From an uncultured bacterium (GTDB lineage: Bacteria > Patescibacteriota > Minisyncoccia > UBA6257 > 2-01-FULL-56-20): a DNA stretch of 64,000 bases. The translations under genes and the position numbers were made by a program. The stretch spans positions 1-64,000 of the forward strand of contig CAWJQC010000006.1 in the NCBI GenBank assembly GCA_963844965.1, given 5' to 3'. The stretch's first letter is position 1. Each line of letters begins with the position of its first letter. Below are positions 3,972 through 59,683 of the stretch, in pieces. The notes under the pieces were generated by a model. It worked only from the letters and a program-made list of their open reading frames with translations. It did not search any database and was not told where the DNA came from.

Positions 3972-5577
3972 TTACTTTCGTATAAACGCTCCGCCGCGTC
4001 TGAAAGCATGCCATGCAGCCGCTCGCTGTTCATCGGCCCGTCGTCGATGAGCGGCGTGAAGGACGGACGCGAGGAAGGGCCGAGGTCGATCCAGTGGCAT
4101 GACGGGCAGGGTGTCGTCGTCCACATAGCCCTCGATGATCTGCCGCACGGCCGTCGTAAAAGCGTCGACCAGATCGTCGAAGCGCTCCGTCCCGAAGCCC
4201 GTGAGCTGCCGGATGAGTTCTTCCGCCCCGTAGCGCGGGAAGAGGACCTTCCCCGCGTAGAGGAGGTCCGTGCACGACGCGAGGCGCGACCTTTTGTCCG
4301 TCGTCACGTGGATGCCCTTGACCTTGTCGTCGTGGATGCCGTCGCTTTTCAGCTGGTCTACCGCCGCCTGCTGGAACTGGTTGTTTCTATGTCGATCTCG
4401 GTATGGCCGCGCTCTGCGAGCGTGCGGTAGAGTTCCTTCATCCTTGCGATCGTGGCCGGAAAGTCCATCCGGTCGTTTACGATCTGCGGCAGGACGTAGG
4501 CCGTGAATTCTTTGCCGTAGCCGGACACCAGATCGGCACCATCGCCGTTTTGTCGGCGGTCTCTTTTTGCGAAATCGCCAAGTCCGTGCCGATGTGGGTC
4601 GCGCGATAGTGCTCGATCTCCGGCAGCTCGTCGTAGTAGTGAATCATTTCATTGCGCACCACTTAATCTTCGTCTGGCACGATATTAAGAAGGTACTCGC
4701 GCTGCCAGGCGATTTCATTGCCGACCCGCAAGCGTTCCTTGATAACGTCCTTGATGCCCGCGTATTTGCCGGGCCAGAGCACGGTGTCGTTCTCGGCGAT
4801 CAGCGGATACCTCTTGTAGGCACCGGAGCGCTTGCCTTCCTCGATCTCCCGGATGAGCCGCATAAGAAGCGAGTCGTCGTGAAGCAGATTCCAGATCACG
4901 ATGAACCGTGTCGTCTTGTCGCCCAAGGGGAAGATGTTACGCGTTACCCATTCGTAGGTGGCATTCCTTGCCTCCTGGGTACGGACGCTCGCAACATCCT
5001 CACAGTCGTCCAGAATGCAGAGGTCGGGTCGGAACGCGCCGTGTTTGATGCCGCGTACGCTCTGCTCGGCGCTCGCCGCCGTAATCCTCGCGTTGTAGTT
5101 CGGGATCACGAGCGAGAAGGAATTCCAATCGTCCTCCTCGCGGAAGGGGCCGAGGTCGTTCCGCAGGAGCGGGTTGCCGTCCAACTGGTCCTTGATGTTC
5201 CGTAAGTACTGCTTCGCCTGCGCGAGCGTCTTGCCGAAGATGACGACGTGTTTTTTCTTTTGCTTTCCCGTGACCGCCCATATCGGATAGAGCTCCGCGA
5301 AGAGGGTCGTCTTGCCGCTGCCCCTGAAGGCCATGACGATGGCGAGGTCCGACGAATCGCTCTCTATGATCTGGTGCATCTCGTAGTGCATGGGTGCGGG
5401 CGCGTACGACATCCTGTCGGGGAAGTAGCACGGCACGAACCAGCTGAAACTCCGGCCCGTGACGGCGACCCTAAAGTCGCGGTCCGTGAGCATCCGCTCC
5501 AGTATCTTCTTGATCTCATCCGCATTTCCGACTCCGTACGCCGGTACATTACTGTTATTGTTTTGATTTTGTTCCAT
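3972..5577 (-). CDS. Phage terminase large subunit (ATPase + nuclease), split by frameshifts into ORFs 4663..5577, 4477..4662, 3972..4307
   Basis: Walker A AFRGSGKTT, Walker B LCILDDCED, nuclease motifs HIGTDLA and DDLVDAF. Confidence 0.65.
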
Positions 5578-6021
5578 TTTGATTGTTGGTATCCGTTAAT
5601 TTATTTTGACCGTCTTTTTCCTCACCGGAACCGACCGCTTCCGGCGGGGATTTGCCCGCAAGGTAAGGAGCATTGATCAGCGCTCGCTCCACCGCCGCCT
5701 GGAATTCCGCGTTCTCCTCCGGCGTCATAATGTTACGCTTCACGTGGGCAGTAACCTCGACTTTCGTGGCGGTACAGTTCGGATGGTGCTGCCGCAACCA
5801 CAGTTGTACTGCTGGGAAATGTTTTTCCCGTAATTCATCGAGATGAGCTGCGACTTCGACATGTCGGTAAGAACTGCCTCACCTTCGGCGATGGCCTGGT
5901 CGGCCCGCTTCGCAAATTCTTTATCCTTTTCACGCCATTCGTAATAGGTGCTTGATCGGCTTTTGATTGCCGCACGTTCGAGCGCGATTTCGAGGATCGG
6001 CATTTTGCGAAACTCCTCCAA
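5555..6021 (-). CDS. Putative terminase small subunit / phage DNA-binding protein (two overlapping frames)
   Basis: Judged by its position immediately upstream of the terminase large subunit and by its size; no strong motif. Confidence 0.3.
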
Positions 6022-20340: not shown

Positions 20341-20556
20341 TTATTTCATTAAATTATCAATCGTAATGCCAAGTCCGTTGGCAATTTTTACGACAGTCTG
20401 AATAGACGGCTTAGTAATAACATTACTTTCGATTTTAGTAAGCGTTGTGTAGGGAAGGTTGGATTTTCTTGCCAGTTCGTCTTGCGTTAGTTCTTGCTTA
20501 TTCCTAAGCTGTTTTATTTTATCTCCAATCGTTTCCTTGTTGTTTTGACTTTTCAT
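20341..20556 (-). CDS. XRE-family HTH regulator
   Basis: LTQDELARKSNLPYTTLTKIE. Confidence 0.75.
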   Translation of the reverse strand: MKSQNNKETIGDKIKQLRNKQELTQDELARKSNLPYTTLTKIESNVITKPSIQTVVKIANGLGITIDNLMK

Positions 20557-45014: not shown

Positions 45015-45765
45015 GGCGGCTCCGCCTTTTTAGCCGCAGCTCCCGTCTTCTCAATTAATCTGGCGCCGCTGCCTTTCGCCCGCCTCGCAAATTCAGCGAT
45101 TTGACTTTGCGTCGCGCCGGCATCCTCAGCCGCTGCCCTAACTTCAGTCGCACCATCTTTTGCTTTTTCTCCTGATCCGGAGTAGCCTCCCTGATTCTCC
45201 TTTCAACATCACTAAGAAACTTTTCCAGTCGGCTTTCTTCCTCCAAGGTTTCGGGAGGGCGGGTGCCGCCCGCCTCGGCGGTCCCCGCTTCGTGCTTTCC
45301 TATATTGACTTTAGGTAGAAGAGGTTTTTCTTTCATTGAATGTTATGCGCCTTTATGCGACGCTTTATATTCTGAAGCTTAAGCTCTTTTATTTCCTCCA
45401 ATATGTCATCAATCTCCTTTTTGTGCTCCTTTTTTAGGGCATCCACTTCCTTTATGAATTCATCAAGTATTTTCTTCAGAGTCGCCAATTTATTATCAGG
45501 CATTGTATGTTAATTATAGCAAATAATAAGGCGAATCTTATGTTTCAATTTATGCTTCAATTATAGCAATTATCCATCAGAATGTCAAGTTCGGCTGGTA
45601 ACACGCGCCAGCCATCTGAAAATCGTTCAAATCATCGCAGATTGTTGTCGTAATTCAATTTTGCCCGCCGAACAAACTCCGCAATGTAAAAACCGCACTT
45701 ATCGGCGGGCGCTAAAGAGAAAATATTTACTTACCGACGGATGTGGAGGTAAAATATAAGTATCA

Positions 45766-54867: not shown

Positions 54868-54960
54868 ACGACACCTCCGAAACTATAAGCTACCGACATC
54901 TTATCATAAACTAACTACTGCGTCAAGCCGGCTGGCTGGGCTAGACCGTGCCGTGCCAAC

Positions 54961-57135
54961 CACTATTGCAATTGTTTTATGGACAGCCCGATTCTGCCGT
55001 CTTCGTCGGCACGTATTATCTTTGCGCGGACGAAATCGCCCACCTTAACTACTTCGGTGACAGTTTTAACATAGCCGTTTTTAAGTTCGGAAACGTGGAT
55101 CATCCCGTCGCGACCGCCGCCCAAATCCACTATCGCGCCGAAATCCAGGGTTTTTATAACCGTTCCCTCAATGATGTCGCCGATCTTATATTCTTTGGTA
55201 AGCGCCGTGATTTCCGCGACCGCCGCGTCCGCCTTCGCGACATCCGGCCCGAGACGAACACGCCGCCGTCTTCCTCCACGTCAATACTCGTAAGCCCGTA
55301 TTTCGCGATCAAACCGTTGATCATCTTGCCGCCGGGACCGATAAGCGCGCCGATCTTCGACGGATCGATCTTAAGCTGGCGGATTATCGGGACGTACTTT
55401 GACAACTGCGGCCGCGGCTTGGCGATAACGGATCATCATGTATTTCAAGAATCTCAAGCCGCGCTTTCTTCGCCTGCTCAAGCGCTCTTTCCAGCATTTC
55501 GTGCGTCAAACCGTCAACTTTCACGTCCATCTGCAAGGCGTTCACGCCGTCTTCCGTACCAGCAGCCTTCAGATCCATGTCACCGTGATGGTCTTCCGGA
55601 CCCTGGATGTCGGTCAAAATCTTATATATATCCTTTCCGCCAAAGGCGGATCCGCCTTTGGCGGACATCATTAGCCCCATTGCCGTGCCCGCCGCCGGTT
55701 TTTTTATCGGCACACCAGCGTCCATAAGCGACAGAATGGAAGCGCAAACGGTCGCCATTGACGACGAACCGTTTGAGGACAAAATTTCGGAAACAACGCG
55801 GATCGTGTATGGAAATTCTTCTTTAGGAGGTATAAGGGGCTCAATTGCTTTACGCGCCAAATTGCCGTGGCCGATCTCTCTCCTGCCCGGACCGCGGAAA
55901 GCGCCGATTTCTCCGACCGAATATGGCGGGAAATTGTAATGCAGCATAAAACGCCGCTTGCCGGTCATTTCCATCGTCTCTATGAACTGCTCCTGCCCCG
56001 GAGGAGCGAGTGTCGTTATCCCCAAAGCATGCGTGTTTCCCCGCATGAATAAGGCCGACCCGTGCGTGCGCGGGAAAAGCCCGACTTCGGCGTTAAGTGC
56101 GCGTACTTCATCAAGCCGCCTGCCGTCGGGACGCTTTTCTTTTTCCAAAATATTCTTGTGGACAAGTTCGTTTATCGCTTCCTCAAATAAATAGTCCGCG
56201 TCCTTGAGGATGTGTTCTTCTCCGCCAAAGGCGAATCCCTGCCCGCCGGCAGGCGTGGCGCCTCTGGCGGAAAAATGCTCTTTGACATGCGCGCGCAATT
56301 CCTCGCGCAGTTTCCCAGTGGCGCCCGAAAATTCAACCTTGGTCTGTCTGTATACCGCTTCCTCAAGTTTGTCCGATAAGAATTTTTTAACCATAACCTT
56401 CAGCGGTTCGTCAAATTCGTGCAATATAAGCCCCTCTTTGGGCTTGCCGATCTCCTTTATTATCTTTTTCTGGAATTCTATCAGCTTGTCGTTCTCTTTC
56501 TGCGCCAGCGCGAACGCCGCGAGTATGTCTTTTTCGCCTGCCTCGTCGCCGCCAAGTTCTATCATGTTTATCCTTCCCAAAGAACCGGCGAGGAAGGCAT
56601 CAAACTTCGGTTTCGTTTCTTTTATTTCCGAATTTGTCGGATTGATGGCGAACCTGTCGCCGAACTGCGCCACGCGGACGCCGGCGACGGGACCTCCCCA
56701 GGGAATGTCGGAAATACCGAGCGCGGTTGAAGCGCCCGCGAGTCCCACGAATTCCGGGTCGTTCTCTTCGTCGTAAGCGAGAACGGTCACGACCACCTGG
56801 ATTTCGCGCCTGATGCGCTGGTCAAAAAGCGGGCGGATCGTTCTGTCAACCGTCCGTCCCGCCAAAATCGCGTCTTCTGACGGCCGTGATTCGCGGCGTA
56901 TGAAACGGCTGCCGATTATTTTTCCGGCGGCGTAAAATCTTTCCTCATAATCCACGCGGAGCGGCATATAATCCGCGTCAATGTCCTCTTTGGACATTAC
57001 AACGGTCGTGAGCACCGCCGTCTCGCCGTACTGTGCCAAAACAGCCGCGTTCGCTTGTTCGGCAATCGGCGAAATTTCAAGCGTCAAAGTTTTACCACCG
57101 ACATCGGTGGTGAATTTTTTGCGTGGTATTGGCAT
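54961..57135 (-). CDS. pnp: Polynucleotide phosphorylase (the KH and S1 domains are in shifted frames)
   Basis: Two RNase PH domains in ORF 55384..57135, a KH domain (IGPGGKMINGL) in ORF 55154..55405, and an S1 domain encoded at 54961-55150. Confidence 0.85.
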
Positions 57136-58343: not shown

Positions 58344-58413
58344 GAACTATACATGCGAATTATGCGAAAGGGATTCGCAGCATTCGCATATACATTCGCG
58401 GCATTCGCATTAT
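58332..58413. promoter_or_regulatory. Dyad array of 7-mers: ATGCGAA x3 then TTCGCAT x4
   Basis: Seen directly, between the rpsO 3' end and the start of the NYN gene. Confidence 0.4.
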
Positions 58414-58418
58414 GTTTT

Positions 58419-58684
58419 TTATTTTTTTAAGTCTAATTTTTTAATAAGCTTTTCGTATTCCTTGGGTTGTTTCTTCTTGAGATACGCCAAAAGCCGGCGC
58501 CTGTGACTCACCATCTTTAGAAGCCCGCGCCTTGAGTGGTGGTCCTTCGGATTTTTCTTCAGATGTTTCGCGAGTTCGTCAATCTGGCGGGAGATTACCG
58601 CGATCTGCACCTGTGCGGAGCCGTGTCTTTTTCGTGCGCCCGATGTTCGCTGATTATTTTGGATTTAACACGCTTGGTAAGCAT
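58419..58684 (-). CDS. rpsO: 30S ribosomal protein S15 (frameshift at ~58620, a G-run deletion)
   Basis: [23 protein letters not shown]; the N-terminus [14 protein letters not shown] is in another frame. Confidence 0.8.
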
Positions 58685-58764
58685 TCGGGTATTGCAACTT
58701 CAATCTGTATGTAAATATTATAACCAATTCGTTAAAAATAAACAAAGAAAGTATCGCGCTTATA

Positions 58765-59034
58765 AAAATAGGGAGGGCTCGCGGGCGCTTTAGTGAATTT
58801 GCCATTGCGCGGCGAGCCCTTCGTACATCGATACACACATAAGGGCTGGGGGGGCGGTTCGAATACTAGCCGCCGCCCTGCCCAATCTGCGCGCCTGCTA
58901 ACTCCGCCGAGGCCGCAGATCTACGCGGGGGCTCGGGCCGAGACCGCACCATTATCGGCCATTCTTACGATAATCCCTGGCCGAAAAACAGTCGGCTGCC
59001 GCTGCCCGCCGCAACTTGGATCCGAATCCAAAGA
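58765..59034 (-). ncRNA. Candidate ~270-nt GC-rich structured ncRNA (identity unresolved; weak resemblance to the RNase P RNA CR-II region)
   Basis: A near-consensus promoter sits upstream and a hairpin plus T-run lies at 58765-58830. There is no ORF on this strand. The segment GGGATtATCGTAAG...GGTGCGGT resembles the RNase P motif GGGAUCAGGUAAG..GGUGCGGU. Confidence 0.3.
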
Positions 59035-59041
59035 GCAACTA

Positions 59042-59069
59042 CTTTACCTGCATTATACACGATGGAAAA
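59042..59069 (-). promoter_or_regulatory. Sigma70-like promoter (TTGACA, 16-nt spacer, TATAAT) on the minus strand
   Basis: Revcomp of 59042-59069 reads ttgacaaatattttccatcgtgtataat. Confidence 0.45.
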
Positions 59070-59116
59070 TATTTGTCAAGTGCCAATTTTGTGATAGATG
59101 AAACGCAACTTGTCCC

Positions 59117-59226
59117 CACACCAACGCCATGTGCCGCGGGAGAGATTCGAACTCTCATAGTCTTACGACTGCTGGCTCATACTCGCCCCGTACCGAGCTT
59201 TGCTCCGGTGCGGGGAAGCCAGTGCG
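59117..59226 (-). other. tRNA-like fragment (T-arm GAGAGTTCGAATCTCTC plus a CCGCGGCA 3' end) with an adjacent long hairpin; no complementary 5' acceptor strand found
   Basis: Manual folding attempt failed to close the acceptor stem. Confidence 0.2.
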
Positions 59227-59237
59227 CCACGCACTAA

Positions 59238-59319
59238 ATTTTGCCGGTGCCGAGGGTGGGATTCGGACCCACAACCCTTTCGGGACAGCGTCCTAAGCGC
59301 TGCGCGTATTCCATTTCCG
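59238..59319 (-). tRNA. tRNA-Leu (anticodon TAG), type II
   Basis: Manual fold: acceptor GCCGAGG/CCTCGGC, anticodon stem CAGCG/CGCTG with loop CTTAGGA, variable arm with a CCC-GAAA-GGG hairpin, T-arm GTGGGTCCGAATCCCAC. Confidence 0.7.
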
Positions 59320-59636
59320 CCACCTCGGCAAAATTTAGTGCGGTGTTCCGCCACCGCGACATTTGCGCGGGGATGAACCTGCCTACCAGCAAGCAGGCCC
59401 GCCAACCTGCCCGCACCGCTCCCATCACTGTTTATCTTAAATCCCGCCATCGTTTTATTCAACAACACGGCAGAATTCCGCAACGCCCATAAAAATGCCG
59501 GTGAGATAAAGCTCCATGGGCTTACCTGCGCTTCGCCGAGGCTGCGGCAAGGCGAGCGCCCGTGGTATCTGGAAGCTTTACCCCGCCCCGACCGCGGTCG
59601 GGGCGGGGTATTCAGCGGGGATTTAATATAAAAAAC

Positions 59637-59683
59637 CAAAAGCCCCCTCCGGCGCAAGGCCGAAGGGGGCTTTTTTCTTTTCT
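59637..59683. terminator. Bidirectional intrinsic terminator (gccccctccggcgcaaggccgaagggggc flanked by A/T runs)
   Basis: Seen directly, immediately 3' of the pilin gene at 59707. Confidence 0.6.

Follow-up and report, generated by a model that had tools for sequence, protein, structure and literature searches.

A possible orphan structured RNA gene behind a perfect consensus promoter, in a recurrent slot upstream of rpsO in Patescibacteria

Background

In the first 64,000 nucleotides (nt) of contig CAWJQC010000006.1 from an uncultured Patescibacteria bacterium (this 64-kb stretch is hereafter called the window), a segment of ~283 nt on the minus strand (58762..59045) lies between tRNA-Leu genes and rpsO. 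It is predicted to be a non-coding transcript based on its boundaries (a perfect sigma-70-type promoter and a hairpin followed by a U-run), the lack of a credible open reading frame (ORF), and the lack of a match in Rfam. The reading that we favor, at slightly less than an even chance, is that it represents a stand-alone gene for an orphan structured small RNA (sRNA) that is independently transcribed, lineage-specific, and fast-evolving. The recurrent, partly structure-constrained slot that it occupies upstream of rpsO is a more interesting lead than this particular copy.

To our knowledge, the regulatory and structural RNAs of the Candidate Phyla Radiation (CPR) are almost entirely uncharacterized, since its members have not been cultivated and the standard RNA models do badly with their sequences. 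If expressed, the segment would add an unclassified RNA of ~283 nt and, more usefully, would mark a recurrent hypervariable RNA slot beside a conserved RNA-metabolism operon. If it is unexpressed or non-functional, the case would show that the combination of perfect promoter, GC-rich body, and hairpin does not suffice for an RNA gene call in genomes of this kind.

The predicted transcription unit

The promoter (59052..59079, minus strand) consists of TTGACA at 59079-59074, a 16-nt spacer, and TATAAT at 59057-59052, and matched 12 of the 12 consensus positions in the promoter scan. The initial annotation had recognized this promoter but rated it as near-consensus, weaker than it is, with coordinates (59069-59042) that were off by 10 nt. 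Promoters with all 12 positions occur twice in the window when both strands are considered, compared with 0.01 expected from shuffled sequences; the second one (45560-45588, minus strand) drives an ORF for a short coiled-coil-like protein that starts at ~45503. Transcription of the candidate RNA is predicted to start at ~59045. The RNA body (58801-59030) has a GC content of 63% (window mean 50.5%), which places it in the top 1% of all 230-nt segments of the window, in good agreement with the ~270-nt GC-rich (~65%) stretch next to tRNA genes that had been annotated initially.

The longest ORFs in the segment encode 102 amino acids (aa), located on the opposite strand, rich in R, P, and G and overlapping the promoter, and 57 aa. 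Neither these nor the other local ORFs had any Pfam match, and the 102-aa ORF had no relative among 5.8 billion predicted proteins, meaning that it was never called as a gene even in the source record. A hidden coding gene was rejected on these grounds, and no XerC remnant was present in this part of the window. The earlier claim that no plausible ORF exists thus holds for both strands, and a homologous gene on the opposite strand was looked for and not found. The RNA sequence is reliable, since a separate short-read Logan assembly from another sample (locus L037) is identical over the entire RNA unit; this locus comes from the same strain as the window (100% identical ribosomal protein S15) and contains the only other copy of the RNA body that was found. 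This strain or relatives of it are present in samples SRR18214601 and SRR18214642.

Both the minimum free energy and the centroid folds depict a string of four local stem-loop domains followed by a linker and a 3' hairpin, all on the minus strand (stabilities are given with z-scores relative to shuffled sequence). Domain H1 (59015..59032) is a palindromic hairpin, UUGGAUC / GAUCCAA (-8.6 kcal/mol, z = -1.8), whose likeness to a tRNA T-arm is at chance level. Domain H2 (58925..59012) is formed by a long-range helix, GCGG.GGGC / GCCC..CCGC, around a nested hairpin (-42.5 kcal/mol, z = -2.2) and includes the string at 58977-58943 that had been likened to RNase P RNA; judged by eye, AUUAUCG and CGAUAAU inside H2 might also pair together. 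Domain H3 (58884..58921) is the hairpin AGAUCUGCG...CGCAGAUU (-19.5 kcal/mol, z = -2.5). H2 and H3 exceed shuffled sequences in stability by a modest margin, while the stability of H4 (58843..58883), an irregular GC helix GGGC.GGG.GGCGG / CCGCC.CCC..GCCC with the 12-nt loop CUAGUAUUCGAA, is indistinguishable from them (z = -1.0). The U/G-rich linker of 23 nt (58820..58842, UUAUGUGUGUAUCGAUGUACGAA) has no pairing in the centroid structure and could serve as an interaction site.

The terminator-like element (58762..58819, minus strand) comprises a stem-loop at 58819-58775, the spacer UCCCUA, and a run of five U residues at 58768-58764. The hairpin is strong (-26.2 kcal/mol, z = -3.3), and the hairpin and T-run described initially are indeed present, but the U-run starts 6 nt past the stem and the consensus terminator scan gave no call here, because of the large loop and the offset U-run. 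The same layout of stem, C-rich spacer, and UUUUU recurs in two related loci, L043 and L003.

Comparison with known RNA families

Rfam 15 was searched at the gathering threshold on the whole window, and at E ≤ 10 with relaxed filters on the 1.1 kb around the candidate (58400-59500). The first search returned only two tRNAs, and the second returned no RNase P class, 6S RNA, transfer-messenger RNA (tmRNA), signal recognition particle (SRP) RNA, T-box, or S15 leader. In 26 related loci (gathering threshold) and five analogous units (E ≤ 5–10), only tRNAs and noise were retrieved. The covariance-model scans that the initial annotation had proposed (RNase P classes, 6S, tmRNA, SRP) were therefore negative, even at E ≤ 10.

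The candidate shares with RNase P RNA, including the diverged CPR forms (PMC8172020), a high GC content, a structured fold, a location beside tRNA genes and a roughly compatible size. One 35-nt string (58977-58943) loosely recalls the CR-II/III region, as had been pointed out initially; the string exists, but no covariance model supports RNase P. The two strands of the P4 helix, CR-I (GGAAAGUCC-like) and CR-V (ACAGAA..CCGG-like), were searched for by eye, and the sole GGUAAAGU-like stretch was found at the extreme 5' end. As no complementary 3' partner could be seen for it by eye, no P4 helix can be drawn, in line with the earlier failure to find the P4 strands. RNase P RNA is a universal ribozyme that is conserved in close relatives, whereas the candidate is not and had no match at E ≤ 10; compared with 12 units, from relatives with S15 proteins 76-90% identical, none of the conservation expected of a universal RNA was detected above chance. 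This identity was consequently rejected (no covariance-model match, no drawable P4, no conservation among close relatives).

Like 6S RNA, the candidate is non-coding and has an apparent strong housekeeping-type promoter, but 6S RNAs usually measure ~180-200 nt and the candidate is longer (~283 nt). It has no match to 6S RNA in Rfam, and it folds into four local domains with unpaired ends rather than into a rod with a central bubble, so the suggestion of a 6S-like RNA was abandoned. ARAGORN detected no tmRNA in the window and neither a tRNA-like domain nor a tag ORF in the candidate, which together with the Rfam negatives speaks against tmRNA. SRP (4.5S) RNA, including its domain IV motif, was rejected as no covariance model matched, and membership in the S15 (rpsO) leaders was not supported, as the RNA stops ~80 nt before the ATG, has a promoter-like site between its end and the gene, and lacks an Rfam match. 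A tRNA-derived origin was likewise discarded: short repeats of tRNA-Leu are at chance level, and the tRNA-Leu profile hidden Markov model (HMM) matches nothing inside the candidate, even at E ≤ 100. The same applies to a mobile or phage origin, given that no further copy exists in the window and no match was found in phage records or IMG/VR. The window RNA and L043 both contain two copies of an AUUCG loop motif, which is not enriched, with 4 occurrences observed across all units vs. 4.5 expected. What is left of the initial proposals is the broadest one, another structured RNA: a promoter-driven, non-coding, structured stretch fits all the tests but belongs to no known family, and it can only be called an unclassified RNA.

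Equivalent units in related genomes

The S15 and NYN-domain proteins encoded next to the candidate have their affinities within the Patescibacteria (Paceibacteria/Liptonbacteria-like metagenome-assembled genomes), and 44 loci with conserved rpsO-NYN synteny were collected. The alignment to syntenic regions that had been suggested initially gave no support: nhmmer, blastn, tblastx, and Smith-Waterman alignments evaluated against dinucleotide shuffles retrieved no homologue of the RNA body in any of the 44 loci beyond chance level. The body is unalignable even in the nearest comparable genomes (S15 88-90% identical, NYN ~80%). The contigs of the single closer organism (NYN 91% identical; SRR22387783, SRR22388118) end 81 nt upstream of the NYN gene, and no closer relative was gained from cluster look-ups.

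The layout closest to that of the window was found in L043 (GCA_040960625.1), which has no recombinase and is arranged as tRNA-Leu, duplicated tRNA 3' end, promoter, 337-nt GC-rich body, hairpin, C-rich spacer, UUUUU, and rpsO-NYN-193 aa-pnp. Its promoter is clearly homologous (the -35 region GCACTTGACAAAT and GTATAAT are conserved), and in a global alignment with the window the tRNA, promoter, and rpsO align, whereas the RNA body does not.

The same architecture is present upstream of rpsO in about 10-13 of roughly 27 distinct Paceibacteria loci, and most relatives have a divergent XerC-like tyrosine recombinase upstream of rpsO. On the rpsO strand, the unit consists of a consensus or near-consensus promoter, 140-500 nt with a GC content of 52-61%, a GC-rich hairpin with a U-run, and a short-leader or leaderless rpsO promoter. 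Loci with the unit include L003, L006, L019, L022, L031, L039, L041, L042, and L043, with less clear cases in L007, L020, and L038. Perfect TTGACA-N16-18-TATAAT promoters occur at 10 sites in ~300 kb of loci, and six of these head a unit upstream of rpsO; equivalent units with such a perfect promoter are found in L003, L031, L042, and L043. Most units of the relatives fold better than shuffled sequences (z -2 to -6), and none matches an Rfam family. Their bodies are mutually unalignable, except for the homologues in L019 and L039 and a 3' module shared by L041 and L042. The window RNA is therefore a positional and architectural analogue of these units, not a demonstrated homologue. About half of the relatives have no unit, and a promoter at the same spot drives rpsO directly. 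Other slot contents include a small protein gene (L017), seven copies of GGGTCAT (L004, ~1100-1150), and two GC-rich repeats of ~100 nt (L020, 3204-3470).

The RNAs of L019 (3324-3677, 354 nt) and L039 (2493-2887, 395 nt) are homologous and 66% identical, with NYN proteins 85% identical. Conserved blocks are interleaved with variable hairpins, and no conserved ORF was seen between the two. In their consensus structure, 14 of the 85 pairs have changed on both sides and remain paired, compared with 1-2 in slid-partner controls, a count that is based on only two sequences and on a structure derived from those same two. These compensatory pairs suggest that at least some RNAs of the slot are under structural selection. 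The conserved blocks comprise GACGAUGCUGG at the 5' end and GGGGUGAU...AUCAUCCGCC-hairpin-GGAAAGUGG, and the RNA appears to be a candidate for a new family, parts of which are shared with L038 and possibly with L020 and L041. Likenesses noted by eye between this RNA and tmRNA, RNase P CR-I (GAGGAAAGU), or the ends of 16S rRNA were dropped because the segments form local helices in the consensus fold and have no model support. It shares position, strand, and the succession of promoter, body, terminator, and rpsO promoter with the window candidate, from which it differs in length (354-395 nt vs. 283 nt) and in having no sequence similarity above chance.

A different pattern is displayed by L041 (500-862) and L042 (1266-1733), with S15 proteins 100% and NYN proteins 94% identical. 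On visual comparison, the two hardly differ in their flanks as far as the -35 hexamer, directly after which come unalignable stretches of ~230 nt (one locus) and ~120 nt (the other), followed by a conserved 3' module (78% identical by blastn). An abrupt, cassette-like replacement seems to account for this better than gradual drift.

In L001-L042, a conserved motif of 11 nt (TTTTRCGACAG or its complement) lies between the divergent xerC-like gene and the rpsO-side promoter, beside the gene start and the -35 box. Its orientation differs between genomes (e.g., L003 ~5280, L019 ~3270), and the window contains one copy at an unrelated site (20386-20396). The motif may be an operator.

Interpretation

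According to the favored reading, RNA polymerase would start near 59045 from the perfect sigma-70 promoter and stop near 58764, releasing a stable structured RNA separate from the rpsO mRNA, which has an apparent promoter of its own. The gene would occupy a slot upstream of rpsO that related Paceibacteria, judging from the genomic context, fill with equivalent units of fast turnover. Most speculatively, the RNA might have a trans-acting role, as a protein ligand or through pairing via the 23-nt linker, with a possible tie to the adjacent RNA-metabolism operon (S15, a NYN-domain nuclease-like protein, and polynucleotide phosphorylase). The promoter-like site of rpsO itself, seen by eye here and in relatives, fits a separate transcription unit, and the conservation of the -35 and -10 boxes in L043, even though the body is not conserved, was counted in favor of an sRNA gene. 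With bacterial sRNA genes in general, the candidate shares a strong promoter, the lack of an ORF, and a GC-rich terminal hairpin with a U-run, and it is likewise intergenic and a few hundred nt long. Typical base-pairing sRNAs are smaller and less GC-rich, and the candidate differs further in the 6-nt gap between stem and U-run, in having yielded neither homologues nor a known partner or target, and in being a predicted transcript only.

Several points weigh against this reading. The folding z-score of the whole molecule is only -1.3 to -1.8, which is weak and marginal relative to shuffled sequence. Termination at the 3' hairpin may be leaky, given the 6-nt gap between stem and U-run and the missing call in the terminator scan. 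No homologue of this body was found among the 44 loci, and the compensatory pairs come from the two sequences of L019 and L039, which also supplied the structure. A covariance model of the core shared by these two found no match in the window and none in L043 (cmsearch, E ≤ 10), its power being limited by the two sequences from which it was built (L038 matched weakly, E = 1.1).

Some of these observations would suit the main rival reading, a transcribed but functionless spacer, in which an old rpsO promoter became parted from its gene by a GC-rich, hairpin-rich cassette that is neutral or swapped by recombination. We consider this somewhat unlikely. The weak folding of this copy is in its favor, as are the undetectable conservation of the body even where S15 is 88-90% identical, the abrupt difference between L041 and L042 despite 100% identical S15, the many relatives (about half) in which rpsO is driven from the same spot and no unit exists, and the protein gene or tandem repeats that take up the slot in L017, L004, and L020. 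A spacer would, however, hardly be expected to keep a perfect consensus promoter at its head in several lineages or a high GC content (52-61%) in every unit, and unconstrained DNA in genomes with NYN proteins 85% identical would probably not align, whereas the RNAs of L019 and L039 are 66% identical and have compensatory pairs. The lack of a second copy in the window, in phage records, or in IMG/VR further argues against a proliferating mobile element. An unlikely explanation is that the segment is a cis-acting leader or attenuator of rpsO-NYN-pnp, in which rpsO would be fed from the strong promoter, read-through at the hairpin being regulated, and the structured leader would either detect a factor (S15, for example) or stabilize the mRNA. 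S15 leaders are structurally diverse between phyla, and those characterized overlap the start codon. Similarly to autoregulatory rpsO leaders, the candidate is structured and placed on the same strand directly upstream of rpsO, as the unit always is; the offset U-run could make termination partial, and rpsO is not leaderless here (leader ~30 nt). Visual inspection places a second copy of the terminator stem's 3' strand, CGAGCCC, at 58935-58929, where it might pair with GGGCUCG in an alternative helix, but a 7-mer repeat easily arises by chance in GC-rich sequence. Unlike a leader, the RNA leaves the start codon uncovered, ending ~80 nt short of the ATG, it is set apart from rpsO by the hairpin and a promoter-like site (in L019 and L039 a well-formed TTGATT-17-TATAAT), it matches no S15-leader or other cis-regulatory family in Rfam, and it varies inside a single genus-level clade. 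In many relatives, rpsO is expressed with no such leader.

A highly diverged universal RNA (RNase P, 6S, tmRNA, or SRP) missed by current models is very improbable. The length range of reduced RNase P RNAs takes in ~283 nt, and the window contains no recognized RNase P, tmRNA, SRP, or 6S gene. RNase P RNAs of CPR organisms can indeed fall below the Rfam thresholds and miss helices, but they were recovered once thresholds were lowered (PMC8172020), whereas nothing surfaced here at E ≤ 10. No P4 helix could be drawn for the candidate by eye, it displays no tRNA-like domain or tag ORF and no rod with a central bubble, and a universal RNA should align between genomes whose neighboring proteins are 80-90% identical, which it does not.

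Beyond the stand-alone sRNA gene that we favor, a wider proposal, quite unlikely at present, is that the window RNA represents one allele of an undescribed class of strongly transcribed, structured GC-rich RNAs of Paceibacteria, which would occupy a fixed slot before rpsO-NYN-pnp and retain promoter and terminator while their bodies are exchanged or diversified in a cassette-like manner. Diversifying selection could act on a hypervariable locus of this kind, for instance if its RNA serves as decoy or specificity determinant for a protein that binds or degrades RNA, or has a part in phage or host interaction. Two known systems offer architectural analogies only. Type III toxin-antitoxin loci also combine a promoter, a structured RNA, a terminator, and a downstream gene, but the candidate has no tandem antitoxin repeats and no toxin gene specifically linked to it. 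In integrons, variable cassettes are read from a strong promoter next to a divergent tyrosine recombinase, and the relatives have this layout; in contrast, no attC-like R''/R' core sites were seen, and the unit persists in the window and in L043, where the recombinase is absent.

Genomic neighborhood

On the minus strand, pilin-like genes with a terminator (59674-59638) are followed by tRNA-Leu(UAG), a tRNA-like fragment, the promoter, the ~283-nt segment, and the hairpin with its U-run, 3' of which lie rpsO (ATG at 58684), the NYN-domain gene, a 187-aa ORF, and pnp. The intact tRNA-Leu(UAG) gene (59246..59329, minus strand) was detected by both Rfam and ARAGORN. It is flanked by a perfect 17-nt inverted repeat (CGCACTAAATTTTGCCG / CGGCAAAATTTAGTGCG, at 59326-59342 and 59230-59246) that lengthens the acceptor stem into a long helix (z = -3.9) and is absent from L043. 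The repeat may act as a stem for processing, or else point to a cassette-like insertion.

The tRNA-like fragment spans about 59231-59130. Its 3' part is a tRNA-Leu(UAG) 3'-half pseudogene reaching from the anticodon to the 3' end (59131..59181, minus strand; tRNA-Leu profile HMM, E = 3e-9, model positions 34-83), uncalled by ARAGORN and Rfam, and its 5' portion is an unrelated hairpin in place of the tRNA 5' part. The pseudogene is closer to tRNA-Leu genes of other lineages than to the adjoining intact copy, and an analogous duplicate of the 3' end of its own tRNA-Leu is found in L043 (2429-2552). Integrases target tRNA genes, and a fragment beginning at the anticodon loop has the look of an integration/excision scar. 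By this analogy, the 3'-half fragment looks like such a scar, which together with the absent recombinase would make the interval from tRNA-Leu to rpsO a rearrangement hot spot.

A candidate promoter of rpsO itself (58717..58745, minus strand; TTGTTT, 17-nt spacer, TATAAT) was read from the sequence and was not listed by the promoter scan. Its TATAAT is located 32 nt before the ATG, compared with 6-9 nt in relatives, which suggests leaderless rpsO transcripts there. The predicted RNA ends ~80 nt ahead of the ATG, so the start codon is not overlapped. At ~58622, one G is missing from rpsO of the window relative to L037, in which S15 is intact (88 aa), and at least two frameshifts in the 3' part of pnp (54868-55383) split the KH and S1 domains. 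These indels are probably assembly errors rather than pseudogenes.

In the spacer between rpsO and the NYN gene (58345-58418, minus strand), arrayed NCGAAU repeats precede AUUCGN copies in inverted orientation, with which hairpins are possible. Such repeats are also present in L003, L015, L029, L038, L039, L041, and L042, and their variable base appears to co-vary (GCGAAU/AUUCGC in the window, CCGAAU/AUUCGG in L015 and L038, ACGAAU/AUUCGU in L029 and L041). Based on this pattern, the array may be a conserved cis-regulatory or protein-binding element.

Between the pilin terminator and tRNA-Leu (59330-59640, minus strand), another ~300 nt are GC-rich, contain no credible ORF, and include a possible TTGAAT-17-TAAGAT promoter at ~59462-59434. 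This stretch, unconserved in the relatives examined, may be a tRNA leader or other non-coding element. GC-rich palindromes of similar sequence (CCTGCC.GCCGG.AGGCAGG, then GTTC) occur in intergenic regions at ~59375-59410 (minus strand) of the window, in L008 (~5600-5635), and in L010 (~5315-5340), which suggests a family of repeats resembling repetitive extragenic palindromic (REP) elements in these Patescibacteria.

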